From the NCBI GenBank assembly GCA_045863395.1, contig BTVJ01000026.1, forward strand, positions 31,288 through 95,287: a stretch of DNA of 64,000 nt, written 5' to 3'. The translations under genes and the position numbers were made by a program. Each line of letters starts with the position of its first letter. The first letter of the stretch is position 1. This DNA is from Myxococcales bacterium (GTDB lineage Bacteria; Myxococcota_A; UBA9042; JABWCM01; BTVJ01). Of the stretch, positions 329 through 64,000 are shown in pieces. Below the pieces are notes generated by a model. That model did no database searches and was not told the DNA's origin. It saw only the letters and a list, made by a program, of their open reading frames with translations.

Positions 329-1575
329 TGGGTGGGCGCACCAGGGACGAGCGTCCCCTGCGCGACGGGTGGGACCGGATCCGACCGCTGCTCGCCGCGG
401 ACGTGGCGCGCCGCGGGCGAGGCGTGGCGCTGCTCATCGTCATGGTCATGGTGGCGGTGCTCGCGGCCTTCAGCGCGGAGTTCAGCTACAACACCCGGGT
501 CAACCTGCGCATGGCGTCGAACCTGGAGCGCGACGTCCAGGCCTACTACCACGCTCGCAGCGCCATCGAGGTGGCGCGCATGGTCATCCGCGGGCAGGCG
601 ATGCTCAACCAGGTGCTCAGCCTGATGGCCGCCGGGGGCGGCGGCGCGCAGAACATCGAGCTGTGGAGCTACGCCTGCAAGTTCGCAGAGATCTACAACA
701 CCGGCAAGGTGGACCTCTTCGGCAAGGAGATGTTCGACCTGTCGGGTCAGGCGGGCATCGGCGTGAAGAACGGGAGCTTCACGTGCACGGCCGACGCGGA
801 GGACGGTCGGGTCAACGTGAACTTTGGCGAGACGGTCGAGGCGAAGAAGGCCATGTTCGCGGAGCTGTTCGGGTTCCTGCGGGGCCCGCGCATCGAGGGC
901 CATGGCCTGACGGACGACGACGAGGAGATCATCGACACCCTGCTCAACATCATGGACTGGGTCGACCCGGACGAGGTGAGGACGGACTTCAACCCCCTCG
1001 ATGGATCGTTCCAGGAGGGTGGCGGCTCGGGGGAGGACTTCGACTACTCGAAGTACGACTATGGGGCCAAGAACGCCAAGTTCGATTCGGTGGAGGAGCT
1101 GCGCCTCGTGGAGGGCATGGACGACGAGATGTTCTGCAAGCTGCGGGACAAGGTGACCGTCTACTCCACGGAGAAGCTCAACGTGAACACGGCGGACATG
1201 GGGCTGATCAATGCGGTGCTGTGCCAGTCGCTGCCGACGGACCAGCAGCTCACCATGTGCCTGCCGAACGCGGCGCTCGGGGGCATCACGCCCATGGACG
1301 CCGTGGGCGCCGTCGTGGACCAGTGCCGCGAGATCAAGAAGATGCTGATGATGACGCCCTTCAACAACACGCAGAAGTTCCAGCAGGTGGTCAATGGGGT
1401 GTCCGCGTACCTGCAGGCGCCCATCCAGGTGCCGGCGACGGCGCTCCAGCACTTCGGGACCAAGAGCCGCGTCATCCGCATCTCTGCGTCGGGCACCGTC
1501 GGGCACACCACCAAGACCTTGACCGGCGTGATCGACACTGGGAGCGGCAAGTATGTATATTGGCGCGAAGACTGA
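325..1575 (+). CDS. gspK: Type II secretion minor pseudopilin GspK
   Basis: Prepilin-like RRGRGVALLIVMVMVAVL, EDGRVNVN, IMDWVDPD, KNAKFDSVEELRLVEGM and KLNVNTA motifs typical of GspK. Confidence 0.9.
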   Translation: MMGGRTRDERPLRDGWDRIRPLLAADVARRGRGVALLIVMVMVAVLAAFSAEFSYNTRVNLRMASNLERDVQAYYHARSAIEVARMVIRGQAMLNQVLSLMAAGGGGAQNIELWSYACKFAEIYNTGKVDLFGKEMFDLSGQAGIGVKNGSFTCTADAEDGRVNVNFGETVEAKKAMFAELFGFLRGPRIEGHGLTDDDEEIIDTLLNIMDWVDPDEVRTDFNPLDGSFQEGGGSGEDFDYSKYDYGAKNAKFDSVEELRLVEGMDDEMFCKLRDKVTVYSTEKLNVNTADMGLINAVLCQSLPTDQQLTMCLPNAALGGITPMDAVGAVVDQCREIKKMLMMTPFNNTQKFQQVVNGVSAYLQAPIQVPATALQHFGTKSRVIRISASGTVGHTTKTLTGVIDTGSGKYVYWRED

Positions 1576-1629
1576 CGGTCAGGCATGCTCGGGCGGGTGC
1601 GTGGCCACGGGCAGCAGGCAGGGCAGGGC

Positions 1630-9582: not shown

Positions 9583-11523
9583 ATGAAGGCGATGACGAAA
9601 AGGAGCGTGGTGCGTTGGTGCCTCGCGGCCCTTCTGACCGCGGCATTGGCGGTCGGTGGATGCAAGAAGGACCCGCCCGCCGCGCCTGCCGAGGCGCCCA
9701 AGGCGGGGGAGACCAAGGCGCCTGAGAAGGGCGGTGAGGCCAAGGCCCCCGAGAAGGGCGGCGAGGCCAAGGCCCCCGAGAAGGGCGGCGAGGCCAAGGC
9801 CCCCGAGAAGGCCCCTGACAAGGCCGGCGACGAGCGCCCCGCGGTGCCCGCCACGGTGTCGGTCCCCGATGGAGTGATCCTCTACGGTGGCATCAAGAGC
9901 CTCGACGATCTGACCGCCCGCATCTCATCCGTCGTCGACAAGGTCAAGCCCATGCCCGGTCTGGGCATGGTGATCACCGGCGCCCTGAGCAAGGAGCTCG
10001 GCCTGTCGAGCATGGACTGGCTCGACACGTCCAAGCCCGCGCGCTTCGCGGTGTGGAACCCGAAGGAGGGCGGCCAGCCGCTGGTGATGGCCTTCCCCAT
10101 GAAGTCACGGGAGGCTTTCGAGAAGGCGCTCCCGGAGGCGCGCGAGTCGGGAGCCGAGGGCAACGCGTTCAAGTACCAGGCTGGCATGAAGGACGCCTTC
10201 GTGAACTTCGCCGGGGACTACGCGCTCCTGGCCCGGGACGCCAAGGCGTATGACCGCCTCAAGGGCTTCGCCGAGGGTGGCCTTGCGGCCTACAAGCCCA
10301 ACGACGCCTTCGAGATCACCATCGCGGTGGGCAACCTGACCCGCATCTTCAGCGACGAGCTCAAGCAGGCTCGCGGCGAGATGGCGAAGCTGATGGCCAG
10401 CGACATGGCCATGTCACCCTTCGCCGGCTCGGCGGCGAGCATGAACACGCAGATCGATCTGATGTTCGACCTGCTCGACCAGCTCGACCAGGCGACCATC
10501 TCTGCCCGCATCGACGGTGACCACGTCAAGATGCCGTTCGCGCTGAAGGCGAAGGACGGCTCCTCCATGGCGAAGTTCTTCGACGCGACCCGCGACCGCA
10601 AGCTGACGCTGCTCGACTACGTGCCTGCCGGCTCCTACCTGGTGGTCGGGGCGAGCATGGACCCCGCGGGCTTCGGCGAGTGGAACGAGCTCGGCATGAA
10701 GATGATCGCGGAGATGTTCAAGCTGACCGGCGAGGAGAAGGCCAAGCTCGACACGCTCATGAAGGGCGCCATGGCGGCGCAGACGGGCGAGTCGGTCTTC
10801 GCGCTCTACAAGGACGGCGCCCTGGCCCTGTCCATGCTCGCGGTCGGCGGTGCGACGGACGGCAAGAAGCTCCGTGACCTGTCCTACGAGATGTATGGCA
10901 TGCTCTGGACCAAGGTCGTCGACCTGATCAAGGCCGAGGCCGGCGCCGAGCTGCCCCCGGAGTTCGACCTGTCGAGCTTCAGCAAGGCCATCGAGAGCCT
11001 GGCCGCCGTCGCGGAGCCCCTCGGCGTCACCGTGAAGGTGGCGACCGAGGAGTACAACGGCGCCACCATCGACAGCATCGCGATCACTATCGACTATGCG
11101 CGGTTCCCCCTGGCTCAGGAGGACGCCGAGGCTGCCGCGGTCATGAAGGCCATCGTCGGCGACAAGATCGTGCTTGCGGCAGGCTACGGCAAGGAGCGCT
11201 ACGGCATGGCCATGGGCCCCGACGCGGTCGCGCGGGTCAAGGACGTCGTCGACGGCAAGAAGGGCGCCACGCCGGTCGCCATCAAAACCGCCGTGGAGCA
11301 CGGGGTGCCCGGGGCGTCCATGCTGTTCTACCTGTCCGCGGTGGACGGCCTCAAGGCGTTCGCGGCCCTGCCCCAGCTCCAGCCCATGAGCGACACCATC
11401 CGCGGCATGTCTGCGGCGAGCGGCGCGGCGTTCAGCTTCGGCTCGGCGAGCGGCGGTGGCCTGTCCGCGGTCATCGACGTGCCGATGAGCCACGTGCAAG
11501 AGGTCCTGAAGCTCCAGCGCTAG
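9583..11523 (+). CDS. Large hypothetical lipoprotein with N-terminal KAPEKGGEA repeats
   Basis: GGAGG RBS, lipobox VGGC, strong high-GC codon pattern. Confidence 0.8.
   Translation: MKAMTKRSVVRWCLAALLTAALAVGGCKKDPPAAPAEAPKAGETKAPEKGGEAKAPEKGGEAKAPEKGGEAKAPEKAPDKAGDERPAVPATVSVPDGVILYGGIKSLDDLTARISSVVDKVKPMPGLGMVITGALSKELGLSSMDWLDTSKPARFAVWNPKEGGQPLVMAFPMKSREAFEKALPEARESGAEGNAFKYQAGMKDAFVNFAGDYALLARDAKAYDRLKGFAEGGLAAYKPNDAFEITIAVGNLTRIFSDELKQARGEMAKLMASDMAMSPFAGSAASMNTQIDLMFDLLDQLDQATISARIDGDHVKMPFALKAKDGSSMAKFFDATRDRKLTLLDYVPAGSYLVVGASMDPAGFGEWNELGMKMIAEMFKLTGEEKAKLDTLMKGAMAAQTGESVFALYKDGALALSMLAVGGATDGKKLRDLSYEMYGMLWTKVVDLIKAEAGAELPPEFDLSSFSKAIESLAAVAEPLGVTVKVATEEYNGATIDSIAITIDYARFPLAQEDAEAAAVMKAIVGDKIVLAAGYGKERYGMAMGPDAVARVKDVVDGKKGATPVAIKTAVEHGVPGASMLFYLSAVDGLKAFAALPQLQPMSDTIRGMSAASGAAFSFGSASGGGLSAVIDVPMSHVQEVLKLQR
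9715..9810 (+). repeat. 27-bp coding tandem repeat (KAPEKGGEA, about 3.5 copies)
   Basis: aaggcccccgagaagggcggcgaggcc repeated in frame. Confidence 0.9.
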
Positions 11524-12379
11524 CCCGCCCCGCCCACCAGACGACCCCCGCCCCGACCAGGGCGGCCAGCGCCACCCACTGGGAGGTCGAGAGCGGCCCC
11601 CAGTGACCCCGCTGGGCATCCCCCCGAAGCAGCTCGATGAGAAACCGGGCCGTCGCGTACAGGGCGACCCACGCCGCGAGCACCTCGCCGTGGAAGCGCT
11701 TGTTCGCGCGCACGCGCAGGAGCAGGCCGAACAGCAGCAGCTCCACGGCCGCCTCGTAGAGCTGTGTCGGGTGGATCGGGCCTCCGAGGAGCCAGGCCTC
11801 CGAGCCAGGCGGGAACGTCACGCCCCAGGGGAGGTCGGTCCTACAGCCGTAGCAGCAGCCCGCCAGGTAGCACCCGATGCGTCCGAAGACGTGGGCGAGG
11901 GCGACGCTCGGGACGAGGGTGTCCGAGAGCAGCCCGAAGCCTGCCCGGTGCCGCAGTGAGAAGCGCCACAGGACCAGGGCAGCCGCCGCGACCCCGCCGT
12001 AGAACACGAAGCCGCCTCGCCACAGCTCCAGGGCAGCAGTGCAGTTCCGGACGGTCGCGCAGGTGCCGGCGTCGCAGACCTGCAGGTCGGGGCATGCCCC
12101 GAGCGGCGTGCATGGGATTGAGGGCAGCGCATCTTGCGGGTCGAAGCACAGGTCGTAGAAGAACTCCCATCGAACGGCCAGGAACGCGAGGCGCGAGCCG
12201 ACGATGGCGGCCATCATCAGCCAGAACATCAGGTCGATGACCGCCCCGCGGTCGAGGCCGACGCGCGGCGCCTCCCGGCCCGCCACGGAGAGGGCCGCCA
12301 GGTAGCCGAGAGCGATCATCACGCCGTAGGCGGGGAGGACGATCCCGATGCCCGTACCCGCAAGCAGGTCAGGGTGCAT
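11471..12379 (-). CDS. lgt: Prolipoprotein diacylglyceryl transferase with a Cys-rich insert
   Basis: YGVMIALG, VGSRL, GGFVFYGG, GRIGCYLAGCCYG, HPTQLYE and RFLIELLRGD motifs. Confidence 0.92.
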   Translation of the reverse strand: MHPDLLAGTGIGIVLPAYGVMIALGYLAALSVAGREAPRVGLDRGAVIDLMFWLMMAAIVGSRLAFLAVRWEFFYDLCFDPQDALPSIPCTPLGACPDLQVCDAGTCATVRNCTAALELWRGGFVFYGGVAAAALVLWRFSLRHRAGFGLLSDTLVPSVALAHVFGRIGCYLAGCCYGCRTDLPWGVTFPPGSEAWLLGGPIHPTQLYEAAVELLLFGLLLRVRANKRFHGEVLAAWVALYATARFLIELLRGDAQRGHWGPLSTSQWVALAALVGAGVVWWAGRASAGASGPLARGSSARR

Positions 12380-12498
12380 GGGGGCGACCGGGGGGCCCGG
12401 ACACGTCGGGGTGGGAGACGGGGCGGACACTCCGGGCCAGGCGCATGTGCCATGGGTTGGGCAGGTGTCTCACGCCGGGAGAGGACAGCATCTGCGGC

Positions 12499-13536
12499 TC
12501 ACACGCCCGTGCGCGCCACCTCGGGCTTCTCGGCCTCGCGGAACAAGGTGCTGTTCTTCTTCAAGAGCATCTCGTAGAGGAGGAAGCCGACCCCGACGGT
12601 GATGCCGATGTCCGCGATGTTGTAGGTGGGCCAGTGGGTGTTGCCCACGTAGTTGTCGATGAAGTCGATGACGTAGTTGAAGCGCATGCGGTCGATGAAG
12701 TTGCCGATGGCTCCCCCGAGGATCGCCGAGAAGGCGACGGTCGCCAGGCGCTGGTTGGGCTCCAGCCGCACCACGACGACGAGGATCACGACCGCCGCAA
12801 TGAGGGAGACCAGGCCGAAGAACGTCTGGCGGAAGGTCCCATGGGCCTGGGCGAGGAAGCTCCATGCTGCGCCCGGATTCTCCGCGTAGATGAGCTGGAA
12901 GAAGCCGGGGATCACGGTGAGCTTCCGCTGCGCGAGCAGGTACAGGTCGCCCTCGTTCACCTGACGATCCGCGGTGAGGCCCTGGTTGCGCGGCGGGACG
13001 GGGTACGTGAACTCGGCCGCCACTCGCCCGGCGTCCGATGCGGAGAGGTAGGGGACCCGATCCACTAGGAAGTCCGCCAGCTTCACGTCGGACAGCACCG
13101 CCGCCACCGCCGCCTGGCGGTCGGAGTCTGCCACGTCCGGCCGGGCAAAGGCGAGCCAGCGCTCGGCGAGGACGTGGTCCTGTCGCAGCACGCGGCGTGG
13201 CGGCAGCTCCAGGGACGAGCGAGCGAAGACGTAGTAGCCGGGCGCCCGCGCCGCGGGGTCGGTGAACACCTTGGTCTCCCCGGTCAGGCCCTTCGGGGCT
13301 GTCAGGAGCAGGACGTCCTCTGCGATGGCGGCAGACAGCGCCTCGCCGGTCAGCTCCGGGAACCGCGCCGACAGGACCGCGCCGAGCGTGCTGCCTGCCT
13401 CGCCGCTCGAGATGACGATGGGAAGAGGGTGCTCGCCGTTGGCCAGGCTCGTCTCGGCCCAGACCTTCGTCCATTGATCCAGGCCGACGGTCACTGCGAC
13501 GACGAGGACCAGGGTGACGTACTTCTTTGTGTTCAT
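12499..13536 (-). CDS. lspA: Signal peptidase II with a large extracytoplasmic insertion
   Basis: LDQWTK, NPGAAWS, GGAIGNFIDR, VIDFI and WPTYNIAD motifs; adjacent to lgt. Confidence 0.9.
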   Translation of the reverse strand: MNTKKYVTLVLVVAVTVGLDQWTKVWAETSLANGEHPLPIVISSGEAGSTLGAVLSARFPELTGEALSAAIAEDVLLLTAPKGLTGETKVFTDPAARAPGYYVFARSSLELPPRRVLRQDHVLAERWLAFARPDVADSDRQAAVAAVLSDVKLADFLVDRVPYLSASDAGRVAAEFTYPVPPRNQGLTADRQVNEGDLYLLAQRKLTVIPGFFQLIYAENPGAAWSFLAQAHGTFRQTFFGLVSLIAAVVILVVVVRLEPNQRLATVAFSAILGGAIGNFIDRMRFNYVIDFIDNYVGNTHWPTYNIADIGITVGVGFLLYEMLLKKNSTLFREAEKPEVARTGV

Positions 13537-52598: not shown

Positions 52599-53960
52599 CT
52601 ACCGCCGCCGGTACCGCACGAGACACGGCGCCTTGGGCCCGACGACCCAGCTCGCGTAGTCCGCCTGCGGCTCCTTGGTGACCAGCTCGAAGTCGTACTC
52701 CCGCAGGAGCACGCTCCAGATGGCCTTGATCTGGAGATAGGCGAAGTGGAGACCGACGCACCGGTGCTTTCCGCCTCCGAAGGCGATCAGGGTGTAGGCG
52801 TGCTTCTTGCTCTCCTCCCGGGGGGGGGCGAAGCGCTCGGGGTCGAAAGACTCGGGGCTGCGGAATACCCGCCAGAGGTGGTGGGACAGCGCCGGGGAGA
52901 CCATCGCCAGGGTGCCCGCCGGGAGCAGGTAGCCGCCTATCTCCATGTCTTTGAGCACCTTCCGCACCAACATGATCAGCGGCGGGTGCATGCGCTCGGT
53001 CTCGTTGATCGCCCGCTCCAGCGTCGTGCTCTGCTTGAGCCGGTCGAAGGTGATCTCCTGGCCCTCGCCGTACAGGCGCTCCAGCTCCGCGAGGATCGGC
53101 GGCAGGACGTGGCGGTGGCGCATCAGCTCGATGCCCACCCAGGTGGCGAGCACGGCGCTGGTGTGCTGGCCCGCGAAGAGCGCAGTCACCAGGAGACCCA
53201 CGATCTCGTGGTCCGTCAGGGCCTTCCCGTCCTTGTAGCGGGACTCGAGCAGCGTCTGCATGAAGTCCTCCTCGCGCCGGCCGCTCCGGCGGCGGTCGGC
53301 CAGGACCTTCTCGAGCAGCTTGACGATCTCGCGTCGGGCGCGGTCGCGGCGCAGGTTGGACGGCACCGGGGCGTGGGGCGCGAAGAAGCCGATGGCGTTG
53401 ATGCCCGCCTGGAGGTCGTGGTAGGCGGCGGCAAACTCGGCGGAGGCCGTGTGGCGGATCTCCTCGGCGACCAGGGTGCGGCTCGCGATGTAAGTGGTCA
53501 GCTCGTTCAGGCTGACGTGGAGGTCGAGCTGGCCCTCGGCGCCCCACCGGGCGATGTACTGCCGGGTCTCGGCCTCCATCTTCTCGATGTACGTGCGCAG
53601 CCGGTCTTCGCGGAGCGCCGGGTACAGGAAGCCGAGCTGCTCGTCCATGATCTGGGGCTCCGCGTCGTAGGCGATGCCCTTGCCGAAGATAGGCACGGTG
53701 AACTTGTAGACCTCCTTGGCGGAGAGCTGGGTCTCCGGAGCCCGGAAGTACGCATCGTGGTTCTCGGGGCCCGCGAGGACCGTGAACTCCTGGCCCACGA
53801 TGCGGAAGCGGTACACGTCGCCCAGGGACTGCTGGGCCCGCCGGAGCAGCGCCACCGGGTTGCGCACGAACTCGACGGTGTGCCCGATGACCGGCAGGCC
53901 CGGAAAGACCGGGGGCAGAGGGGCGGACGTGATCGGTGGGGCGTGGGTGGTTGCGACCAT
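52599..53960 (-). CDS. cyp51: Cytochrome P450 CYP51 (sterol 14-alpha-demethylase)
   Basis: VYKFTVPIFGKGIAYD, I-helix FAGQHTS, ETERMHPP and heme motif FGGGKHRCVG. Confidence 0.92.
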   Translation of the reverse strand: MVATTHAPPITSAPLPPVFPGLPVIGHTVEFVRNPVALLRRAQQSLGDVYRFRIVGQEFTVLAGPENHDAYFRAPETQLSAKEVYKFTVPIFGKGIAYDAEPQIMDEQLGFLYPALREDRLRTYIEKMEAETRQYIARWGAEGQLDLHVSLNELTTYIASRTLVAEEIRHTASAEFAAAYHDLQAGINAIGFFAPHAPVPSNLRRDRARREIVKLLEKVLADRRRSGRREEDFMQTLLESRYKDGKALTDHEIVGLLVTALFAGQHTSAVLATWVGIELMRHRHVLPPILAELERLYGEGQEITFDRLKQSTTLERAINETERMHPPLIMLVRKVLKDMEIGGYLLPAGTLAMVSPALSHHLWRVFRSPESFDPERFAPPREESKKHAYTLIAFGGGKHRCVGLHFAYLQIKAIWSVLLREYDFELVTKEPQADYASWVVGPKAPCLVRYRRR

Positions 53961-53996
53961 GGGTGTCTCCTCGGGGCGGCGCCCCGCAACGGGATC

Positions 53997-55097
53997 TCAG
54001 TAGACGAACGGGAACATGCGGAAGCGGGCGCGGCGGCGGTACTCCTCCCAGAGCGGGCCGTACTTGGCGGCGCACCGCTCCTCGTCGCGCCAGGCGCGGT
54101 GGATCAACAGCCCGAGCAGCCACCCGGGCAGCAGGTAGGGGACGAAGGACTGGAAGCCGGTGAGCAGGGTCCACGAGAAGTAGACCATCAACTCACCCGA
54201 GTAGTTGAGCTTGCGGCCGATGCCCCAGAAGCCGCTGACCAGGATGCGCCCCCCGAGGGTCTCCGGCGTGCGGCCCCAGATGGGGGCGCTCGGGTCGCGC
54301 TTGAAGCGGTCCTTCTGCTCGTTGGCGCCCCGGAAGATCCACATCCCGATGGCATAGGTGAGCGGGAGGACCGCTGCGGCCCAGGGGGCGATGGCGTGGG
54401 CGGGATCGAGCAGGAACCACCCGGAGATGCAGTAGAAGAAGGGCACGAGCACGTAGTCGCCCCAGACCAGCATCCAGCCGAAGTTCTCTGCGATGACGTC
54501 CCAGGTGTGGAGCATGCCGTACTCGAACTGGAAGTAGTTGAACACGTAGGCGAAGGTCATCCCCTGGTAGAGGAGCATCGGCGTCGTGAGCGTGCCGGTC
54601 TGCTCCCACTGCACCACGGCGAAGCTGGCGTTGAGCACCGCGAGGCCGATGAGGGACGGGCGGTAGGCGAACATCTTGAGGTCGAGGCCCGCCCCTCGCG
54701 GGTTCAACTCCAGGCCGAAGAAGGCGTCCTTGATGAAGCCCGCGAGGCCCGGTCGGCGCGGCGCCCCTGCCCGGGCGCCCTTCACCCAGAGGGCGAAGGT
54801 CATGGTGAAGGCGAGCACGTTGGCCATGACCAGCAGCGGCAGGAAGTGGGCGTGGACGGTGGCGAGGGAGAAGACACCCGTCACCTGGAGCGCTCCCAGG
54901 GCGAGCGCCGTCGCCAGGAAGAGGCTGAGGCCGTTCAGCGTGTAGGTGATCTGCGTGCTGTCCGCGAGCACGGCGCCCTTCATGCGGCGGCCGGGGAGCA
55001 CGCGGGAGCCGAGGCCGAGGGCGGCGAGGAAGACCGCGAGCATCAGCGCCGCTGTCGCGAGACCCTCCGGCGTCATGGTGCGCATGGCTTCCTGCAC
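53997..55097 (-). CDS. ERG24/ERG4/DHCR7-family sterol reductase (probably Delta-14)
   Basis: FFGLELNPR, ENFGWMLVWGD, GANEQKDRF, SGFWGIGRKLNYSGE and HRAWRDEERCAAKYG..W motifs; GTG start after GAAGGAGG inferred. Confidence 0.9.
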   Translation of the reverse strand: MQEAMRTMTPEGLATAALMLAVFLAALGLGSRVLPGRRMKGAVLADSTQITYTLNGLSLFLATALALGALQVTGVFSLATVHAHFLPLLVMANVLAFTMTFALWVKGARAGAPRRPGLAGFIKDAFFGLELNPRGAGLDLKMFAYRPSLIGLAVLNASFAVVQWEQTGTLTTPMLLYQGMTFAYVFNYFQFEYGMLHTWDVIAENFGWMLVWGDYVLVPFFYCISGWFLLDPAHAIAPWAAAVLPLTYAIGMWIFRGANEQKDRFKRDPSAPIWGRTPETLGGRILVSGFWGIGRKLNYSGELMVYFSWTLLTGFQSFVPYLLPGWLLGLLIHRAWRDEERCAAKYGPLWEEYRRRARFRMFPFVY

Positions 55098-55192
55098 GGC
55101 TCCTCCTTCGACTTCGAGTCGGGAATGGCGCGCACCATAGACCAACCTCCCCGCCCGGATCAACGGGTTCTCGACTTTGGGTCTGGTTTCTG

Positions 55193-55222
55193 TTGACGGC
55201 GCTCGCGCGGGGAGGGTATACC
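55193..55222 (+). promoter_or_regulatory. Possible sigma70-like promoter for osc-sdmB-sdmA
   Basis: TTGACG, 18 bp spacer, TATACC in the divergent intergenic region. Confidence 0.35.
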
Positions 55223-55260
55223 CGACGCCCGACTCCGGGTCGGTTCTGGAACAGCATCCA

Positions 55261-57270
55261 ATGGGGACGCGCATGGGCTCTGCAGCCAGGTCCTTGGTGG
55301 CCATCGACGCGCAGGCGAGGGAGGTCACCCGGGCCTTGGACCGGGCGGTCGCACATCTCCTGCGCGTGCAGGGGCCGAGCGGCGCGTGGGCCGGAGAGGT
55401 GGTGTGGAGCTCCATGCTCACGTCCCAGGTGGTGCTGGCGAGCCACGCCGTCGGGCGCCCCCTGGGCGACGAGGACCGGGACGCCATCCTGCGCACCCTG
55501 AGCGCGGCGCAGCTCCCCGACGGCAGCTTCCCGCTTCACCCGGAGTCGCAGGGCGCGGTGTTCACGACGGCCCTCGCCTACGCCGCCATGCGCCTGCTGG
55601 GCGTCGCCGCCGGTGATCCGCGGGCGCGTGGCGCGCTGGCGGCCCTCGATGCCCGCGGCGGCGTGCTCGGCATCCCCTCCTGGGGCAAGGTCTGGCTCGC
55701 GCTGGTCGGCCTCTACGGCTGGGAGGGGGTCAACCCGGTGCTCCCCGAGCTGTGGCTGCTGCCCGACGCCGCGCCCATGCACCCGCGCCGGTACTACTGC
55801 CACACGCGGCTCATCTACATGCCCATGGGCGTGCTGAGCGCGCTGCGGTACGTGGCGCCCGAGACGGCACCCATCCGCGCCATCCGCGACGAGCTCTACG
55901 GGGCAGGGGGATTCGAGCGGGTGGACTTCCGGCGCCATCGCGATCACCTGGCAGACTCCGACGTGTACGTGCGGCCCACATTGCCGCTCCGCGCCCTCTA
56001 CCGCGCCTCCTCGGTCGTGGAGACCGTGGCCCCCCGGCGGCTGCGCATGCGGGCCGTGCGGCGGTGCATCGCGCTGATCCGCGGCGAGCTGCACGCGAGC
56101 CGCTTCGCGTGCATCAGCCCGGTGAGCGGGCTGCTCAACGTGGTCGCGCTCCACGCCCACGACCCCCGCGACCCGGATCTGGACGCCGCGTGGCGGGGCA
56201 TCGAGGCGTGGCGCTGGCAGGACGACGACGGCGCCCGGTGGGTGGGCGCCCGCAGCGACACCTGGGACACCTCCTTCGCGCTCCAGGCCCTGGCGACGCG
56301 CCCGGGACCCGTGCCCGAGCTGCCCATGCGCCTCGGCGCCGACTTCCTGTTCGCCCACCAGGTGCTGGAGGAGCTGGCTGACCCCGCGTCCCTCTACCGC
56401 GACCCGCGCCGCGGGGGCTTCTGCTTCAGCGACTCCTGGCACCGGTGGCCCGTCAGCGACACGACGGCCGAGGCCGTGCTGGCCCTGCTCGCCCTGGAGC
56501 GCCGGGGGCTGCTTCGGGTAGCCGACGAGCGCCTCGCCCTGGCCGCGGAGTTCATCGCGCAGCGCCAGAACGCGGACGGTGGCTTCGGCTCCTACGAGCG
56601 GCGCCGGGGAGGCCCGCTCCTCGAGTCCCTCAACCCGAGCGAGATGTTCGGCGCTTGCATGACCGAGGCCTCCTACGTGGAGTGCACCGCGTCCTGCGTC
56701 GAGGCCTTGGCTGCCCTGGCGCGGCGTCTCCCCACGTTGGCAGCGCGGCTCAGGGGGGCCATTGCACGCGGGCGGGACAGCATCCTCGCGCAGCAGCGCC
56801 CGGACGGCTCGTGGCCCGCGGTGTGGGCTGTGGGCACGACCTACGGGACGCTCTTCGCGCTGCGGGGGCTCCTCCATGGCGGCTGCGGCGCATCTCACCC
56901 TGCCGTGCGGCGCGCGGTGGCCTGGCTCCAGCAAATCCAGAAGGCGGACGGCTCCTGGGGCGAGCACTGGTCCGGCGCCGCGTCCCAGCGGTACGTGGAG
57001 CACCCGGAGGGGCAGGTCGCGCAGACCGCGTGGGCGGTGATGGCGCTGGTGCTTGCGCGCGAGCCGGGACAGCCTGTCTCTCGCGCCGCCCTTCGGGGAG
57101 CCCGCTTCCTGGCGCAGCGCCAGGCGAGCGACGGCTCGTGGCCCCACCAGATGGCGAGCGGCGTCTTCTTTCACACGGCGGTGCTCGACTACCGCCTCTA
57201 CAAGGATCTCTTCCCCACCTGGGCCCTCGCCATGGTCGAGGCTGCCCGGGACACCAAGGAGCACCCATGA
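55261..57270 (+). CDS. osc: Oxidosqualene cyclase (sterol cyclase) with a variant SDTTAE motif
   Basis: IPSWGKVWL, PELWLLP, YCHTRLIYMPM, WPVSDTTAE, LNPSEMFG and YVECT; several QxxDGSW repeats; lacks the DxDD motif of squalene-hopene cyclase. Confidence 0.88.
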   Translation: MGTRMGSAARSLVAIDAQAREVTRALDRAVAHLLRVQGPSGAWAGEVVWSSMLTSQVVLASHAVGRPLGDEDRDAILRTLSAAQLPDGSFPLHPESQGAVFTTALAYAAMRLLGVAAGDPRARGALAALDARGGVLGIPSWGKVWLALVGLYGWEGVNPVLPELWLLPDAAPMHPRRYYCHTRLIYMPMGVLSALRYVAPETAPIRAIRDELYGAGGFERVDFRRHRDHLADSDVYVRPTLPLRALYRASSVVETVAPRRLRMRAVRRCIALIRGELHASRFACISPVSGLLNVVALHAHDPRDPDLDAAWRGIEAWRWQDDDGARWVGARSDTWDTSFALQALATRPGPVPELPMRLGADFLFAHQVLEELADPASLYRDPRRGGFCFSDSWHRWPVSDTTAEAVLALLALERRGLLRVADERLALAAEFIAQRQNADGGFGSYERRRGGPLLESLNPSEMFGACMTEASYVECTASCVEALAALARRLPTLAARLRGAIARGRDSILAQQRPDGSWPAVWAVGTTYGTLFALRGLLHGGCGASHPAVRRAVAWLQQIQKADGSWGEHWSGAASQRYVEHPEGQVAQTAWAVMALVLAREPGQPVSRAALRGARFLAQRQASDGSWPHQMASGVFFHTAVLDYRLYKDLFPTWALAMVEAARDTKEHP

Positions 57271-58373
57271 CCGTCACCCCCCTTCACGGAGCCGCCCCGC
57301 GCAAGGGCCTCGTCCTCGTCACCGGCGGGGCCGGGCACCTGGGCGCCAACCTGGTGCGGCGCCTGCTCGACGATGGCCACGCCGTGCGATGCCTTCAGCG
57401 GCCCGGCAGCAACAACGCCGCGCTGGACGGCCTGGACGTCGAGCGCGTCGACGGCGACCTGCGCGACCCCGCCAGCCTTCGGCGGGCAGTCGCCGGCTGC
57501 GCTCGGGTGTTCCACGCGGCCGCAAAGGTCTCGACCATCGACGGGGACCACCACCACAAGCGCGAGATCTTCGACTCCAACGTGCTCGGCACGCGCCACA
57601 TGCTCGCGGCGGCCCTGGAGGAGGGCGTCTCCCGCGTGGTGGTCACCGGCAGCTTCAGCGCGGTGGGCCACCACCTGGACGATCCGTCGCGCCCCGCCGA
57701 CGAGACGGTGCCCTTCTACCCCTTCGAGCGGTCGATGCCCTACGAGGTCTCCAAGGTGGGCGTGGAGCACGAGGTGCTGCGCGCCGTCGCCCGGGGGCAG
57801 GACGCGGTGGTCGCGACCTCCTGCGCGATCATCGGGCCCAACGACTTCAAGCCCTCCCGCATGGGCCGCACGCTCTGCGACTACACGCGGGGCCGCGTGC
57901 GCGCCTACATCCCCGGCGGTTTCGAGTTCGTGACGTCGCGGGACATCGTCGAGGGGCACGTCCTCGCCATGGAGAAGGGGCGCCGCGGCGAGAAGTACGT
58001 GTTCAGCACCCAGTTCATGACCCTGGACGACGTGCTCGACACCTTCCAGCGCGTGACCGGCGCGCCCAAGCCACGCCTTCGGCTGCCCGTGGCGCTGATG
58101 GAGCCCATCGCGGAGGTGATGAGCGCCATCCTGACGCGCTTCTTCCCCGACGTCCCCCAGCGCCTCACCCCCGGCGCGATGCGCATCCTGCGCATGAACC
58201 GGCACGCAGACACCACGAAGGCTCGCACGGAGCTTGGATTCAAGCCAACGTCCTTCGAGGACGCGGTCCGCGAGCAGTATGAGTTCTTTTGCGGCCTCGG
58301 GTGGGCAGAGCGCAGGGTGGCTGTCTCCATGGCGGGAGATTCTCCCGCGCAGAAGGTCCGCCGCGCCGGCTGA
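57267..58373 (+). CDS. sdmB: NAD(P)-dependent extended SDR, SdmB-like sterol C-4 decarboxylase/3-beta-HSD
   Basis: VTGGAGHLG Rossmann motif, HAAA, YEVSK catalytic motif; overlaps the osc stop and precedes a Rieske gene. Confidence 0.72.
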   Translation: MTVTPLHGAAPRKGLVLVTGGAGHLGANLVRRLLDDGHAVRCLQRPGSNNAALDGLDVERVDGDLRDPASLRRAVAGCARVFHAAAKVSTIDGDHHHKREIFDSNVLGTRHMLAAALEEGVSRVVVTGSFSAVGHHLDDPSRPADETVPFYPFERSMPYEVSKVGVEHEVLRAVARGQDAVVATSCAIIGPNDFKPSRMGRTLCDYTRGRVRAYIPGGFEFVTSRDIVEGHVLAMEKGRRGEKYVFSTQFMTLDDVLDTFQRVTGAPKPRLRLPVALMEPIAEVMSAILTRFFPDVPQRLTPGAMRILRMNRHADTTKARTELGFKPTSFEDAVREQYEFFCGLGWAERRVAVSMAGDSPAQKVRRAG

Positions 58374-58433
58374 AGTTCTGGGTCTCAAACTCCCCGCTCC
58401 GGACGGGATCAACGACACGACGAGGTGACTCAC

Positions 58434-59546
58434 ATGGCCTATACCCAAGCTGCTCCGCCGTCCTTCGAGGACTCGAAGACCCGCCGCCAGAAGGTGCGGG
58501 CCGCCGGTCTCCACCCGGACTACTGGTACCCCGTGGAGTGGGACCGGAACGTCGCGAGGGGGCAGGTGACGCAGGTGACGTTCTGGAGGCGCGCCTTCGC
58601 GCTGTTTCGCGGCGAGGACGGGCTCCTGCGCGCCATCGAGGACCGCTGCGTCCATCGCCAGCTCAAGCTGTCCATCGGCAAGGTGCAGGGCAACGAGCTG
58701 GTCTGCGCCTACCACGGCTGGGTCTACAACGGCGACGGCGCGCTGACCTGCGTCAAGCACGACCTCTTCGGGAAGCCCCTGCCCAGCTACAAGATCGAGA
58801 GTCTCCCCGTGCGGGTGCGCTACGGGCTGATCTGGATCTTCCCCGGAGACCCGGAGCTGGCCAGCAAGCGCCACATCCCCGACATCCCCGAGCTGGAGGG
58901 CCCCGACCGCTGGGGCTGCGCGCCCGCGGACTTCACGTGGAAGGCGCACCACTCGATGGTGATCGACAATGTGAGCGACTTCACCCACGCCTGGCTCCAC
59001 CGGAAGTACCGCCCCTTCGACGACGCGAAGCTCACGCGCCTGGAGACGGTCGGAGACAACGTCCACGTCTCCTACGACACCCAGGTCGGCCGGGGGCGCA
59101 TCAGCGGGCTGTTCGTAGACCGGAAGGCGGTCAACACCAACGCCATGGATCTCTGCTACGAGTATCCGTACCAGTGGTCCGACACGGACGGCAAGATCAA
59201 GCACTGGCTCTTCGTGCTGCCCATCGACGAGCGCACGACGCGCGCGTTCTTCCTGTTCTACTTCAAGGGCTTCAAGATCCCGTTCCTGCCGCTCTCCCTC
59301 CCCAAGTCCCTGATGACTCCGCTGCTGGCGGTGGCGAGCCACACCCTGGTCAAGCCGCTGCTGTCCGAGGACGGCGTCGCGGTGCAGGCGGAGCAGGAGG
59401 GCTGGGAGGCCCACTGGGACGAGACTGCCGCGGAGATCAACCCGTGCATCCGCCAGTTCCAGAACGTGACCATCCGCAAGTGGGAGGAGCACCTGGCGCA
59501 GAAGGCGGCCACCTCCCGGACGGCGCGGAGGATCGACGCGGCCTGA
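58434..59546 (+). CDS. sdmA: Rieske non-heme iron oxygenase, SdmA-like sterol C-4 methyl oxidase
   Basis: CVH...CAYH Rieske motif and DFTHAWLH mononuclear iron site; sterol-cluster context. Confidence 0.75.
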   Translation: MAYTQAAPPSFEDSKTRRQKVRAAGLHPDYWYPVEWDRNVARGQVTQVTFWRRAFALFRGEDGLLRAIEDRCVHRQLKLSIGKVQGNELVCAYHGWVYNGDGALTCVKHDLFGKPLPSYKIESLPVRVRYGLIWIFPGDPELASKRHIPDIPELEGPDRWGCAPADFTWKAHHSMVIDNVSDFTHAWLHRKYRPFDDAKLTRLETVGDNVHVSYDTQVGRGRISGLFVDRKAVNTNAMDLCYEYPYQWSDTDGKIKHWLFVLPIDERTTRAFFLFYFKGFKIPFLPLSLPKSLMTPLLAVASHTLVKPLLSEDGVAVQAEQEGWEAHWDETAAEINPCIRQFQNVTIRKWEEHLAQKAATSRTARRIDAA

Positions 59547-59564: not shown

Positions 59565-61169
59565 CTACAGCCAGCTCGACAGCTCCTTCCGTCGCAGCTC
59601 GATGAACTCGATCAGGTTGGACCCGCCGGCCCCGTCTGGCGCGATGGCGGCACCGTAGGCGCCCTTGTCCTGGATGTTGGGGTCGCCGCCCACGAGAGTG
59701 CCGATCAGCCCGTCGAGCTCCCCGATCCACGCAGCGTGGGCCTCGACGGTGAAGTGCTCGTCGACCGCCTCTTTCAGGTAGGCCACGTACTGTGCCTGGT
59801 AGGCGGGGACGGCCAGGATGCGCTGGACCAGCGGGCGCGCCCCGGGGCCCCAGCAGTCGGGCTTCGTCGGGTCCTGGGAGCACAGCGGCCCCTCGTAGGT
59901 CAGGTCCAGGTCCCAGGGCAGCATCATGAGCTTGCCCGTGTCAGGCCGGTGGTAGAGATAGTAGTTGTGGCCCTTGCCGAAGTAGCTGTCCCAGTTGCCG
60001 ATGATCATGGCCACCGCGGTCAGGCGAAGAAACGAGTCCACGTCGAAGATCGCCTCGATGGCCGCCGGGAAGGCCTCGTCGGGCGTGTGCGCCAGGACGT
60101 CCATGAGCGCGATGACGTCGCCGTAATCGTTGAGCGCCGGGTCGTCCTCGTTGGTCTTGAGCAGGAGCCCGCAGATCGCGTACCCGGCCGCGCAGCCCTC
60201 GGTCTGGATGTAGTCCTCCTTTGAGGGGCCCCGCCACTGCAGCGAACAGATGTCCTGGCTGTTGTGCAGGCACTTGTAGAGGTTGCCGTCGTCGGCGTGG
60301 CCCGCGGTGCCGAATCGCTCCTTGAGGTAGCGCTTGTCGATGACCTGGACCATCGTGTAGAGGCCGACGTAGCTCCCGTCGATGGTGACCCCGGCGTAGG
60401 CCGAGCGGCTCGCCGGGACCCCCATGGCCTCGTACATGCGCTCCGCGAGGCGCTCCCGCATCAGGCTCGGGTCGCTCACGTTGATGGACAGGTTCACCTC
60501 GTCCACCTCGTGGAAGCGGGGGCCGCCGAAGGTGTTGAAGTCCATCTTCAGTGGGTACTTGCCGCCGAGCGGGATCGGGCCCTCCGCGGGGACGTTCAGG
60601 GAGTTCAGGCCCTTGAGGCGCACCCCGATGACGTCCAGCGACTCGTCGTCGAAGCCGAAGGCGGCCGGGTACTCGACCTTGAGCTGCGACTGCTGCCAGG
60701 TGGTGAGCAGCTTGAGCCAGCCGCCGTCCGGGAAGTCGAGCTTCAGCGCGACGACGTGGTCCTGCGGGAAGACGTGGTCGAAGGCCTCCTTCCACGGGTC
60801 CTCGCCCGCGCCGGTGTCGCCGGGGGGCGACGCGTCGGTGGTCGCGTCCGTCGTGTCTGTCGCGTCTGCCGTGCCCGTCGTGTCGGTCGTGTCCGTCGCG
60901 TCCGTCGCGTCCGTTGCGTCCGTCGTGTCGTCGCCCTGCCCGTCGTCCTGCGTGGTGTCCTCCAGCGCGTCCCCCGCCGTTGTCCCGTCGAGCTCGCTCG
61001 CCCCGTCCGGTGCCCTGACGTCCCCCGAGTCGTCCCCGCCGGCGTCGCTCCCCCCGTCCGGCGGCCCCCCGTCCGCCGCGTCCGCTCCTTCTCCCACTGG
61101 CTCCGAGGCGGCACAACCGCCCATCCATAGGATCGCGCTCAGCAGGAGCGCGGTAGTTCTTCGCTTCAT
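59565..61169 (-). CDS. cotH: CotH-family atypical kinase lipoprotein with an Asp/Thr-rich stalk
   Basis: Lipobox MGGC; GVRLKG, K.PLKMDF, DPSLMRERLA, YVGLYT, NWDSY..HNYYLY and LPWDLD motifs. Confidence 0.88.
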   Translation of the reverse strand: MKRRTTALLLSAILWMGGCAASEPVGEGADAADGGPPDGGSDAGGDDSGDVRAPDGASELDGTTAGDALEDTTQDDGQGDDTTDATDATDATDTTDTTGTADATDTTDATTDASPPGDTGAGEDPWKEAFDHVFPQDHVVALKLDFPDGGWLKLLTTWQQSQLKVEYPAAFGFDDESLDVIGVRLKGLNSLNVPAEGPIPLGGKYPLKMDFNTFGGPRFHEVDEVNLSINVSDPSLMRERLAERMYEAMGVPASRSAYAGVTIDGSYVGLYTMVQVIDKRYLKERFGTAGHADDGNLYKCLHNSQDICSLQWRGPSKEDYIQTEGCAAGYAICGLLLKTNEDDPALNDYGDVIALMDVLAHTPDEAFPAAIEAIFDVDSFLRLTAVAMIIGNWDSYFGKGHNYYLYHRPDTGKLMMLPWDLDLTYEGPLCSQDPTKPDCWGPGARPLVQRILAVPAYQAQYVAYLKEAVDEHFTVEAHAAWIGELDGLIGTLVGGDPNIQDKGAYGAAIAPDGAGGSNLIEFIELRRKELSSWL

Positions 61170-61496
61170 CGTCTTTCCTCGTCAGGTCACTGCCGCCCCG
61201 TGCGGCCGCTCGACCGCCTGCATGGCGGATGCCAGCGCGTCGCCGCAATTCGGCGTGATCTTCAAGCGGCGATCTGTCGCGGTCGTTCCCTCGATGCGCA
61301 GAATCTTCACACACCGCGGCGTCGGGCGCTCGTGCTTGCCGCGACCCCAGAGACTCGTCCCGAGGGGACAACTCGCCCCGAAACAGTCCGGTTTCAAAGG
61401 GTCTGGGCGATCTTCAAGCACCCCGGATCCGCCCTTGTGCCCCCCCTGGGACGGCGCGACACTGCACCCGGGCCCCTCTACGCCCTGGAGGCAGAC

Positions 61497-62234
61497 ATGG
61501 CTCTCCCCCTTCGCTCCCGCGCCCTGCTTCGGACCTCCCGCGCCCTGCGCAAGCTGCGCTCCTTCCTGCTCCTCGGCATGCTCTCGCTCGCGCTGATGAT
61601 CGTCGAGCTGTTCACCGGCTGCGACACCACGGAGGAGGAGCCCTCGGTCTACTATGGCCCGCCGACGGCCGACGCCACCGACGCCACAGAGGGGGTGGAC
61701 GCCGTCTCCGATGTCCCGGAGCAATCGGACACGGGCCCCGTCGTCTACTACGGCCCCCAGCCGGTGGACGTGATCGGGGACGTTCCGCCCCAGTCGGACA
61801 CGGGCCCGGTGGTCTACTATGGTCCCCAGCCGGTGGACGCCCTCGACGACGTGCCGCAGCAGTCGGATACGGGCCCGGTGGTCTACTACGGTCCCCAGCC
61901 CGTGGACGCGCTCGACGACGTGCCGGAGCAGTCGGACACGGGCCCGGTGGTCTACTATGGTCCGCAGCCGGTGGACGCGCTCGACGACGTCCCGCAGAGC
62001 TCAGACGGTGGCCCGGTGGTCTACTACGGCCCTCAGCCGGTGGACGCCGCCGCGCCGGCCGACCTGGAGGACAAGGACTGCCCGCCCATCGCCTTCTACG
62101 GCCCGCCGCCCTGCACGTCCGACGAGGACTGCGTGGCGTGGTACGGTGCCGGCTGGTACTGCGACAAGGACAACACCTTCTCGGATGGATGCGGGGGCAC
62201 CATCAACTTCCCCATGTGTGAGCCACTACCGTGA
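61497..62234 (+). CDS. Repetitive lipoprotein with eight X-Tyr-Gly motifs, putative substrate of the adjacent radical SAM enzyme
   Basis: GGAGG RBS; signal peptide ending FTG-C42; SVYYGPP, five VVYYGPQP, AFYGPPP and AWYG; six-Cys C-terminal module. Confidence 0.85.
   Translation: MALPLRSRALLRTSRALRKLRSFLLLGMLSLALMIVELFTGCDTTEEEPSVYYGPPTADATDATEGVDAVSDVPEQSDTGPVVYYGPQPVDVIGDVPPQSDTGPVVYYGPQPVDALDDVPQQSDTGPVVYYGPQPVDALDDVPEQSDTGPVVYYGPQPVDALDDVPQSSDGGPVVYYGPQPVDAAAPADLEDKDCPPIAFYGPPPCTSDEDCVAWYGAGWYCDKDNTFSDGCGGTINFPMCEPLP
61710..62049 (+). repeat. 69-bp (23-aa) in-frame tandem repeat, five copies (DVPxQSDTGPVVYYGPQPVDALD)
   Basis: Read directly; the differences are mostly synonymous or outside the YYGP core. 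Confidence 0.93.
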
Positions 62235-63388
62235 CGACCGTCGTCGACCGCATCCGCACCCGCCTGGTCTGGGAGCGCCACGCCGCCCGCACCGACGAGC
62301 TGTGCGACACCCACCCCCTGCGCTACCTCTTCCTGGAGGTGACGCGCCGCTGCAACCTGGCGTGCCGGTACTGCGGCAGCTCCTGCACGGGCCGCTTGCC
62401 CCCCGACGAGATGGACGTCACCGAGTGGGTGGGGGTCGTCGAGCAGATCGCCCGGGACTTCGACCCCCGCCAGGTCATGATCGCCGTCACGGGCGGCGAG
62501 CCGCTCCTGAAAGAGGGCATCTTCGAGCTCTTCCGGGCGCTCCAGCGCCTCGGCTTCCGGTACGGCATGGTCAGCAACGGCCAGCTCCTCGACGCCACGA
62601 TGGCGCAGGACCTGGTCCGCTCGGGCATCCGGTCCATCTCGCTCAGCCTCGACGGGGTGCCGGAGGTAAACGACGCGCTGCGGGGCCGCGGGGCAGCAGC
62701 CAAGGTGGTCGCGGCGGTCGGGCACCTGAGAGACGCCAACTACCGGGGCAAGCTCGAGATCATCAGCACCATCACGCGCCCGGCCCTCGCCCGCCTGGAC
62801 GAGATGCGCCGCTTCGTCGCGTCGCTGCGGGTGCCGCTCTGGCGAGTGGCCCCGGTGATGCCCATCGGCCGCGCCGCGGAGAACCCGGAGCTCGTGCCGA
62901 CGGCCGACGACGTGCGGGCCCTTCTCGAATACGTGCGCGCGGCGCGCCGCGACAAGCTGATGCCGTCCCCGGAGTTCAGCGAGGAGGGCTTCCTCGGCAA
63001 CCGCTTCGAGGGCCACGTCCGCCCCTACCTGTGCCAGTGCCGCGCGGGCATCACCATCGCCGGCATCCGCCACGACGGCCGCATCGGCGCCTGCCCGGAG
63101 CTGCCCGCCGCCTTCGACCAGGGCCACGTCCGCACGGACCGCTTCAAGACAGTGTGGGACGAGCGCTACGAGGACCTGCGCGACCGCTCGTGGATGCGCA
63201 AGGGAGACTGCGACGGCTGCCCCCAGTTCAAGGTCTGCCGCGGCGGGTCGCTCCACCTCTACGAGAGCAAGGAGAGTCCATTCCTGCGCTGCCTCTACAA
63301 GCAGTGCAAGGAGTCGGAGGGGCGGCCCGTGGCGCTGGGCTGTGCCGGCGCGCAGGCCGGAAGCGTGGCACAGACTGTCGCGCGGTGA
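62231..63388 (+). CDS. Radical SAM/SPASM protein-modifying enzyme (rSAM-lipoprotein / splicease-like)
   Basis: HPLRYLFLEVTRRCNLACRYCGSSC (CxxxCxxC), TGGEPLL, SLSLDG; SPASM-like CRAG..DGRIGACP and CDGCPQFKVCRGG; GTG start overlaps the precursor stop (GTGA). Confidence 0.9.
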   Translation: MTTVVDRIRTRLVWERHAARTDELCDTHPLRYLFLEVTRRCNLACRYCGSSCTGRLPPDEMDVTEWVGVVEQIARDFDPRQVMIAVTGGEPLLKEGIFELFRALQRLGFRYGMVSNGQLLDATMAQDLVRSGIRSISLSLDGVPEVNDALRGRGAAAKVVAAVGHLRDANYRGKLEIISTITRPALARLDEMRRFVASLRVPLWRVAPVMPIGRAAENPELVPTADDVRALLEYVRAARRDKLMPSPEFSEEGFLGNRFEGHVRPYLCQCRAGITIAGIRHDGRIGACPELPAAFDQGHVRTDRFKTVWDERYEDLRDRSWMRKGDCDGCPQFKVCRGGSLHLYESKESPFLRCLYKQCKESEGRPVALGCAGAQAGSVAQTVAR

Positions 63389-63407
63389 GTCTCCCCCGGC
63401 GCGGCGC

Positions 63408-63660
63408 TCAGTCCTTCGGCCAGGCGGTCCAGCCGGTCGTCCAGTCGTCGGCGCCGACCGCCCCGACGTAGGTCGCCGTCTTGTCGAAGAAGCCGTCGTC
63501 CGGCGGGGTGGCGCCGCCGCCCCGGAGACCCGCTGGCGGGGGCGAAGGTGGGCGTCTCGTCGGATGCGCCGGTCAGCTTCGGGTCCACGAGCCGGTTCGA
63601 CGCGCTCGCGGCGGTGAAGTGAGCCTCGCTCGTCGGGTCGCAGACCACGGCGCCACTCAT
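63408..63660 (-). pseudogene. Frameshifted C-terminal remnant of a secreted or lipoprotein gene
   Basis: [36 protein letters not shown] in one frame, [18 protein letters not shown] in another; no intact 5' part. Confidence 0.55.
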
Positions 63661-63780
63661 CAGGGCCCTCAACGACCGTCCCACGGGAGTCTCGGGGGCC
63701 CCCAGTGGGACGAGACGCGGTGGCCTGGTGTGCAGGGATCCTGTTGACTCGACCAGCAACGGCGTGGTCTTGCGGCCACT

Positions 63781-64000
63781 GTGGAGGCGTGGCACGCCGC
63801 GCGCGGGGTCACGTGTCACGACGTCGTGCGGCAGGTGGTGGAGGTGCTGCACGGTTGGCTGTGCGCCCGCGCCGAGCGGCGGGTGGGGGACCGTTGCCAC
63901 CCCGGCTCCGTCGTGGTCATACCGCGAGCGGCCGACGCCGCGACGTTGATGGTTCACCTGCACATCCTCGCGCCCGACGGGGCCTACGCGGAGAGCCCGG
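63781..64000 (+). mobile_element. Degenerate IS91/ISCR-like rolling-circle transposase fragment (runs off the right edge)
   Basis: HPGSVVVIPRAADAATLMVHLHILAPDGAY resembles the IS91-family G.V..IQR.G..LN..VH.H.L..DGVY HUH region; in-frame stop at 63745-63747. Confidence 0.5.

Follow-up and report, generated by a model that had tools for sequence, protein, structure and literature searches.

Among the closest described relatives of the locus reported here are two sets of radical S-adenosylmethionine (SAM) enzymes. One is the pair of families TIGR04133 and TIGR04134 (rSAM_w_lipo and lipo_with_rSAM), which are curated as hypothetical families only. The other comprises the spliceases, namely PlpX-PlpY-PlpA and PcpXYA of type I, the binary RhaX and RasX and the type II enzyme RcsX, in which a radical SAM/SPASM enzyme is encoded beside a precursor bearing an X-Tyr-Gly (XYG) site. 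We analysed a 64,000-nt stretch of contig BTVJ01000026.1 from a Myxococcales bacterium (assembly GCA_045863395.1), hereafter the window, within which all coordinates are given. It contains a pair of overlapping genes encoding a predicted lipoprotein with several XYG sites and a radical SAM/SPASM enzyme of the TIGR04133 clade. The lipoprotein is very likely the substrate of the enzyme, and on balance we favour a two-gene splicease-type system in which tyramine would be cut out at several positions while the precursor is still cytoplasmic, with export and lipidation at Cys42 coming afterwards.

According to the accessible parts of PMC11414181, spliceases remove C8H9NO at XYG and leave the alpha-keto-beta-amide of X, can also splice internal protein sites, and occur in binary systems devoid of a Y protein, where the leader helix is the activator; types III and V are named in its supplement. 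PlpX is placed in IPR026482 (PMC11002830), MftC is described as also acting on a peptide Tyr (PMC8326336), and the ketoamide is reported to be needed for protease inhibition (PMC11626197). In 2022 the end products of spliceotide biosynthesis in native hosts were still called elusive (PMC9811515). Scott et al. 2022, as summarized in the available part of PMC10849128, mined YG motifs beside 3,418 radical SAM-SPASM candidates, with such enzymes turning up in 189 genera and 27 pairs being confirmed; since its title mentions proteins, that paper may already cover lipoprotein-type systems. Our literature search returned no paper on TIGR04133 or on a lipoprotein-type spliceotide or splicease, Scott et al. 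2022 and a 2024-25 splicease mechanism paper lying outside that search. The "TIGR04134" met with in the accessible text of PMC11611037 is unrelated, the number being used there for a domain of the type IX secretion system.

The two open reading frames (ORFs) lie on the plus strand at 61497-62234 (245 aa, the precursor) and 62231-63388 (385 aa, the enzyme). The precursor stop and the GTG start of the enzyme share the letters GTGA, and a Shine-Dalgarno-like GGAGG (61487-61491) stands 5 nt ahead of the precursor ATG. A first-pass annotation, made from the letters alone, had proposed a radical SAM/SPASM enzyme coupled to a lipoprotein-type ORF; the gene pair and its overlap, the CxxxCxxC motif at enzyme residues 41-48 and, in the precursor, FTG-C42, five tandem 23-aa units and a terminal six-Cys module were all recovered. 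The precursor opens with a long signal helix, Arg-rich then hydrophobic (61497-61619; predicted helix, residues 8-41), followed by the lipobox-like Cys42 (61620-61622), which is invariant in 47 aligned homologues. Basic n-region, hydrophobic h-region and lipobox Cys together are those expected of a bacterial lipoprotein, as far as sequence can tell. Both Lgt and LspA are encoded in the genome, with lgt and lspA matches side by side on the minus strand of the window (about 11471-12930, ~49 kb from the locus) and two further lgt copies on other contigs. Beyond Cys42 come site 1, Y-Y53-G-P (61650-61661; Y53 and G54 conserved in at least 90%), then five acidic, predicted-disordered 23-aa repeats with one YYGP site each (61694-62047, plus strand; Tyr 85, 108, 131, 154 and 177; period 69 nt, 5.1 copies, 84% matches), and finally the six-Cys module C195-C241 (62079-62219). 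The module holds site 7, F-Y201-G-P, between its first two Cys, where Y201, G202 and P203 are invariant, as well as W-Y216-G. In the AlphaFold model, helix 8-41 is followed by a low-confidence middle and a confidently folded module (predicted local distance difference test, pLDDT, 91-97 for residues 201-245); a fold search with it was dominated by the signal helix (best Z 3.6).

Eight YG dipeptides are thus present, at Tyr 53, 85, 108, 131, 154, 177, 201 and 216, with X being Tyr six times, then Phe and Trp. The first-pass annotation had counted all eight as sites; we retain seven, because W-Y216-G is devoid of the Pro context and poorly conserved, the position being Tyr in 49/105 homologous modules. 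W-Y216-G is probably structural, and we rejected it as a substrate site.

Selection acts on the X-Tyr-Gly-Pro motif. When the five repeats are compared, the 12 motif codons differ synonymously only (6 of them vary), and 6/11 spacer codons change the residue. When the mature sequence was shuffled 100,000 times, 8 YG were never reached; if the array is reduced to a single repeat, 4 YG remain, a count reached in 195/100,000. Among the top 25 six-frame ORFs listed for the 8.8-Mb genome, no other had more than 3 [YFW]YG, and neither the multi-site XYGPxP pattern nor a hidden Markov model (HMM) of 111 homologous modules found a match elsewhere in the genome. The repeat array is not an evident assembly artefact, since a separate 245-aa protein, 96% identical, likewise carries five repeat units, and depth across the array is not raised in contigs from two DNA runs.

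The precursor belongs to no Pfam or NCBIfam family (NCBIfam E up to 1), and every match in the ESM Atlas scored <0.9 or fell below the acceptance bar. A dedicated search, in which 8,000 candidates were scored, yielded 84 homologues. Among the resulting 85 family proteins including the query, a lipobox-like Cys occurs in 83 by our own heuristic (Gly, Ala or Ser required at -1) rather than by a dedicated signal-peptide predictor, each protein has 2-9 YG, and 63 contain the six-Cys module, in one to five copies. Over 466 core sites the consensus is P(59%)-x-x-X-Y-G-P(94%)-x-P(86%), X being Tyr (44%), Leu (28%), Trp (8%), Phe (7%) or Ala (4%). This family-wide conservation is partly circular because the homologues were found via the motif; the within-gene codon comparison, by contrast, is not. 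The six-Cys module has no Pfam or NCBIfam name. Three homologous precursors (P0007, P0008 and P0017) consist almost wholly of three to five such modules, and in every module the loop from the first Cys to the second contains a single X-Tyr-Gly-Pro.

The pairing of the two genes was recovered from the enzyme side as well, by searches that are not circular with the YG motif. A genome scan with the enzyme returned 22 loci, 17 of them at 60-68% identity, mostly from Myxococcota or Deltaproteobacteria, and 5 at 22-28%. An ORF with YG[PVI] repeats (2-9 sites) lies directly upstream in 17/17 of the close homologues, and an ORF with at least two sites in 0/5 of the distant ones. Within the phylum, 56 of 401 genomes have a TIGR04133-like enzyme, in one case above the cut-off, and the 30 loci returned by this survey were examined. 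A neighbour with both lipobox and YG accompanies 44/50 enzymes of the TIGR04133 clade, 17/20 myxobacterial enzymes of the GDL/PlpX clade and 1/12 AhbD-like controls, counts that include kin and are not independent. Homologues thus keep YG-bearing lipoprotein neighbours; their absence would have spoken against the original proposal. Across 18 close loci only enzyme and precursor are widely common, and no conserved protease, exporter, transporter family, Y gene or RRE (RiPP recognition element, RiPPs being peptides that ribosomes make and that are then modified post-translationally) was found, in agreement with the earlier remark that none of protease, exporter and RRE is adjacent. That annotation had also suggested that the multicore YYG-lipoprotein architecture in this lineage may not be known already; the architecture is not peculiar to this locus, and members of two enzyme clades have it across the phylum.

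Prediction of a complex between the enzyme and precursor residues 8-95 gave an ipSAE of 0.47 against 0.01 for the best of 3 controls, with a partner pLDDT of 51-54, runs agreeing in at least 38% of contacts and no interface given. With a score at or below 0.60, the mark was reached by 18/157 solved complexes and also by each of the two mismatched pairs that got through, and such passes are more often wrong than right unless the pair is likely beforehand; the prediction thus lends weak support to binding.

Several partners of related enzymes deserve mention in their own right. In a number of TIGR04133-clade loci (L062 at 2568-2957, L033, L035, L049, L053 and L031) the partner reads Cys-Tyr-Gly, X being the lipobox Cys itself, so splicing there would alter the lipid-bearing residue; one L031 paralogue has Tyr-Ala instead of Tyr-Gly. 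The myxobacterial GDL/PlpX-clade partners of L076-L095 are lipoproteins in which a CxxC..CPxC zinc-ribbon-like start precedes the signal region; they bear acidic YG[APLVG]P repeats, and many loci have two or three paralogues. Of 15 PlpX-side enzymes, chosen for score range, 9 combine enzyme, signal segment, Cys and YG tail in one ORF. One such fusion is a second system in the genome of the window (L002 at 1297-3147 on the plus strand; G000:C31), a PlpX/GDL-side radical SAM/SPASM enzyme joined in one ORF to a signal-like segment, a Cys and a tail in which small Cys-rich modules accompany four E/D-Tyr-Gly sites.

The enzyme exceeds the cut-offs of PF04055 (Radical_SAM) and PF13186 (SPASM). Its features are a CxxxCxxC-GS radical SAM motif (residues 41-50; 62351-62380), a G-F-x-G...E...R motif ahead of the SPASM region (residues 253-264; 62987-63022) and SPASM-type Cys at 270, 288, 327, 330, 336 and 354 (63038-63292). 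Its model (pLDDT 94) has an N-terminal helix and no RRE-sized domain and matches anSME, SkfB and SuiB with template modelling (TM) scores of 0.64-0.67; no close solved structure was found, the best E being 1.8e-12 (SkfB), and in the phage collection only distant radical SAM proteins matched. The best family by far is TIGR04133, at 298.7 bits over positions 2-347 of its 350, below the cut-off of 425; AhbD (119.8 bits), MftC (117.5), TIGR04053 (113.7), TIGR04103 (93.9, against a cut-off of 725) and TIGR03913 (72.2) follow. We take TIGR04103 to be the same family as IPR026482. Identity is 34-36% to TIGR04133 members, 27% to a TIGR04103 member and 31% to MftC.

In both trees, hand-chosen subsets of 41 and 37 rows from a 96-row set for which a quick search alone was run, the query falls within a TIGR04133 clade that includes over-cut-off members (100/100), its subclade sitting on a long branch of its own. 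The first tree sets were built without L074, the last without L135 and L136. The TIGR04133 clade is probably the sister of the PlpX/GDL splicease clade, as judged from a grouping with the TIGR04103 member (853 bits, above cut-off) and GDL proteins that received 93/90 under a mixture model (41 rows) and 73/96 with more outgroups (37 rows, LG+G4; 70% of bootstrap trees). CxxxCxxC-GS is present in 79/79 enzymes of the two clades and 0/27 others, and the G-aromatic-x-G..E..R motif in 37/50 TIGR04133 and 22/29 PlpX/GDL enzymes (59/79 together) and again in 0/27 others. Members of the wider enzyme family (P0150, P0094, P0116, P0126, P0147, P0153 and P0173) have varied architectures, such as one enzyme with a C-terminal LYGPPP tail of its own, tandem double radical SAM proteins and fusions to a large membrane domain.

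Compared with TIGR04133/TIGR04134, the locus shares the two-gene layout and a YG-bearing partner with a lipoprotein signal. The likeness to this pair that the first-pass annotation had pointed out therefore stands for the enzyme, albeit below the cut-off, and not for the partner: TIGR04134 matched neither the precursor nor anything else in the genome (cut-off 39.8 bits; controls 207 and 43.7). Whereas the curated TIGR04134 partners examined have one YG just past the lipobox and then a globular region, the query has seven XYGP sites, a disordered chain and the six-Cys module. Like the binary spliceases it has a predicted N-terminal helical leader and no Y protein, its enzyme has the CGS and pre-SPASM motifs in common with a TIGR04103 member, and one of its candidate splice sites is flanked by Cys, an arrangement described for RasA and RcsA in the available part of PMC11626197. 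Unlike spliceases, the enzyme (~27% identical to the TIGR04103 member) belongs to a clade of its own. Its precursor, with seven sites and aromatic X, opens with a lipoprotein signal instead of a Nif11/NHLP-type leader, and the locus is devoid of peptidase, exporter, TIGR04103-type Nif11/NHLP precursor and Y gene. The TIGR03913 GDL-motif (DUF1843) systems form part of the sister group, and their myxobacterial members have lipobox partners with acidic YG[APLVG]P repeats (17/20), but in those partners either a CxxC..CPxC zinc-ribbon-like segment comes first or the protein is a fusion with the enzyme. MftC, AhbD, NirJ and PqqE share the SPASM fold (HMM scores 85-120 bits) yet fall outside the clade in every tree and have no CGS (0/27). 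No YG lipoprotein accompanies AhbD-like controls in 11/12 loci, and no cofactor-pathway gene is adjacent to the query locus; a cofactor-type enzyme grouping with Ahb, NirJ, PqqE or MftC, an outcome that the earlier proposal had set against itself, was not found. The mode of action would be that of a binary splicease system; with a moderate phylogenetic link and a defining reaction that is a predicted one, we do not claim membership.

The two genes are translationally coupled, as their overlap and conserved order show, and we propose that the enzyme would bind the precursor in the cytoplasm, before export, as expected of an iron-sulfur, SAM-dependent protein. The signal helix, the only helix available, is a candidate for a dual role as signal peptide and enzyme-activating leader, and the disordered acidic chain may present the sites one by one. 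At the Tyr of each P-x-x-X-Tyr-Gly-Pro-x-Pro site a tyramine equivalent would be excised (-135.07 Da) and the chain rejoined, leaving an alpha-keto-beta-amide with the side chain of X (six from Tyr, one from Phe). That the chemistry is tyramine excision is probable, given the kinship with PlpX-type enzymes and the XYG motif. Sec export, Lgt/LspA lipidation at Cys42 and closure of three disulfides in the C-terminal module would follow, the latter forming around site 7 in a manner recalling the two-Cys cores of RasA and RcsA. The product likely stays lipid-anchored, to judge from its sequence, and would be a membrane-tethered, acidic, flexible chain of electrophilic ketoamides. A multivalent trap for Ser or Cys proteases is its most plausible function, although this is the weakest step, drawn by analogy, and a protease-inhibitor role is something we put forward tentatively, at somewhat less than even chances. 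A broader generalization is rather doubtful: the TIGR04133 clade would consist of spliceases of envelope lipoproteins whose export signal helix doubles as activating leader, this member producing a natural protein of full length whose backbone is spliced repeatedly. Up to seven Tyr- or Phe-derived alpha-keto-beta-amides, one in a disulfide-locked loop, would then line a lipid-anchored chain that serves as a genetically encoded, multivalent and cell-bound protease trap.

Several observations weigh against splicing by this enzyme. By score it is no closer to the PlpX family than to AhbD, MftC and TIGR04053, and pairwise it reaches 109 bits with MftC and 107 with the TIGR04103 member. The sister relation to spliceases is moderately supported, in trees that include no experimentally characterised splicease; the signature motifs were chosen after the alignment had been viewed, only 8 outgroups were added later and 12 of the 27 outgroups are AhbD-like near-kin. 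At positions that TIGR04133 and PlpX/GDL otherwise have in common, the query subclade departs from both (Leu for Trp35, and K94, G96, N147, R200 and P223), so that the chemistry could have shifted. The accessible parts of PMC11626197, PMC9811515 and PMC10533398 give Met or Leu as natural X, Gly being engineered, and mention one DYG site left unmodified. Lipidation is not certain either, given Glu37 in the h-region and Phe at -3. We also considered that loss of Trp35 might track aromatic X; this fits the query subclade and its sister, and not the f52 subclade (Trp35, X being Tyr or Trp) or the TIGR04133 core, and the idea was dropped.

In an unlikely alternative, the same enzyme and substrate would carry out another radical reaction at Tyr, either a crosslink (of the ring to a C-H nearby, or of Tyr with Tyr) or an oxidative C-C reaction like that of MftC, and yield a stapled surface protein. 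MftC and AhbD scores that equal or exceed those of the PlpX family, the structural match to general SPASM maturases and the private substitutions would suit it, as would an aromatic X at 65/110 sites of the 19-member subclade. Tyr-Tyr crosslinking, raised at the outset as a second option, has lost ground, because X is free and often Leu while Tyr-Gly-Pro is fixed, and such a link cannot be general. More broadly, the residue after Gly varies between clades (P, V, A, L, I or G) and the YG dipeptide is fixed, which is the splicease rule, and the common CGS motif and the tree position favour the splicease side.

Quite improbable, in our view, is that splicing occurs as proposed on a multicore precursor whose acidic spacers are cut after export by unlinked proteases, releasing short ketoamide peptides and the disulfide module. 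Multicore RiPP precursors typically have near-identical cores between disordered acidic spacers, and core number here ranges from 2 to 9 across the 85 proteins. Characterised spliceotides are described as small peptides in the available part of PMC11626197. Against release stand the 18 loci, which share no protease or transporter family, the spacers, in whose alignment consensus no conserved cleavage motif was noticed, and the lipobox-like Cys of nearly all family proteins by our heuristic, a costly feature if the chain were merely cut up. It is very improbable that the YGP repeats serve a surface protein for structure or binding and that the enzyme modifies another target (e.g., the lipobox Cys region) or is paired for regulatory reasons only: Myxococcota are rich in acidic, Cys-rich repeat lipoproteins, the nearest Atlas clusters are such proteins (lead-only scores 0.75-0.81), X is the lipobox Cys itself in several TIGR04133 partners and the complex prediction is weak, but multi-site XYGPxP with a six-Cys module is unique to this ORF in the genome, partners differ wholly in fold and length between clades with YG alone in common, and enzyme-tail fusions exist.

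The proposed reaction type and the gene pair are already known, and the architecture recurs widely in the phylum; what is new in this real and conserved locus is the variant, a multicore aromatic X-Tyr-Gly-Pro lipoprotein with a six-Cys module. Since a single enzyme faces five nearly identical cores and no accessory gene is involved, the locus offers a clean test of splicing in this clade. It would equally test the acceptance of aromatic X, and show if nature's product is an entire membrane protein rather than a small peptide. An enzyme that places ketoamides derived from Tyr, Phe or Trp at a short tag, P-x-x-X-Y-G-P, would, if confirmed, widen the protein-labelling toolbox.

Regarding expression, the contigs of one RNA-library run span 61485-63460 and little else of the 5 kb examined; as most of the stretch is covered in a second RNA run as well, the signal may stem from DNA carry-over and is a hint at most. 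At the locus no sigma-70 promoter match (~0.1 expected) and no intrinsic terminator match (~0.5 expected) was found. The divergent upstream gene for a CotH-family lipoprotein and the flanking genes were rejected as members of the system, being absent from homologous loci. This CotH-kinase-family gene (59565-61169, minus strand) has a lipoprotein-like signal and a 9-nt Thr/Asp/Ala repeat at 60841-60934 whose length differs in one run. Beyond it, 52599-59546 reads, from its translations, like a sterol or triterpene synthesis cluster, with a P450, a sterol-reductase-like membrane protein, a squalene/oxidosqualene-cyclase-like protein, an NAD-dependent epimerase/dehydrogenase and a Rieske oxygenase. 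On the other side, 63700-64000 is probably the start of a transposase-like multi-copy element, presumably IS91-like, where depth climbs and several variant contigs stack at 63829-64000.

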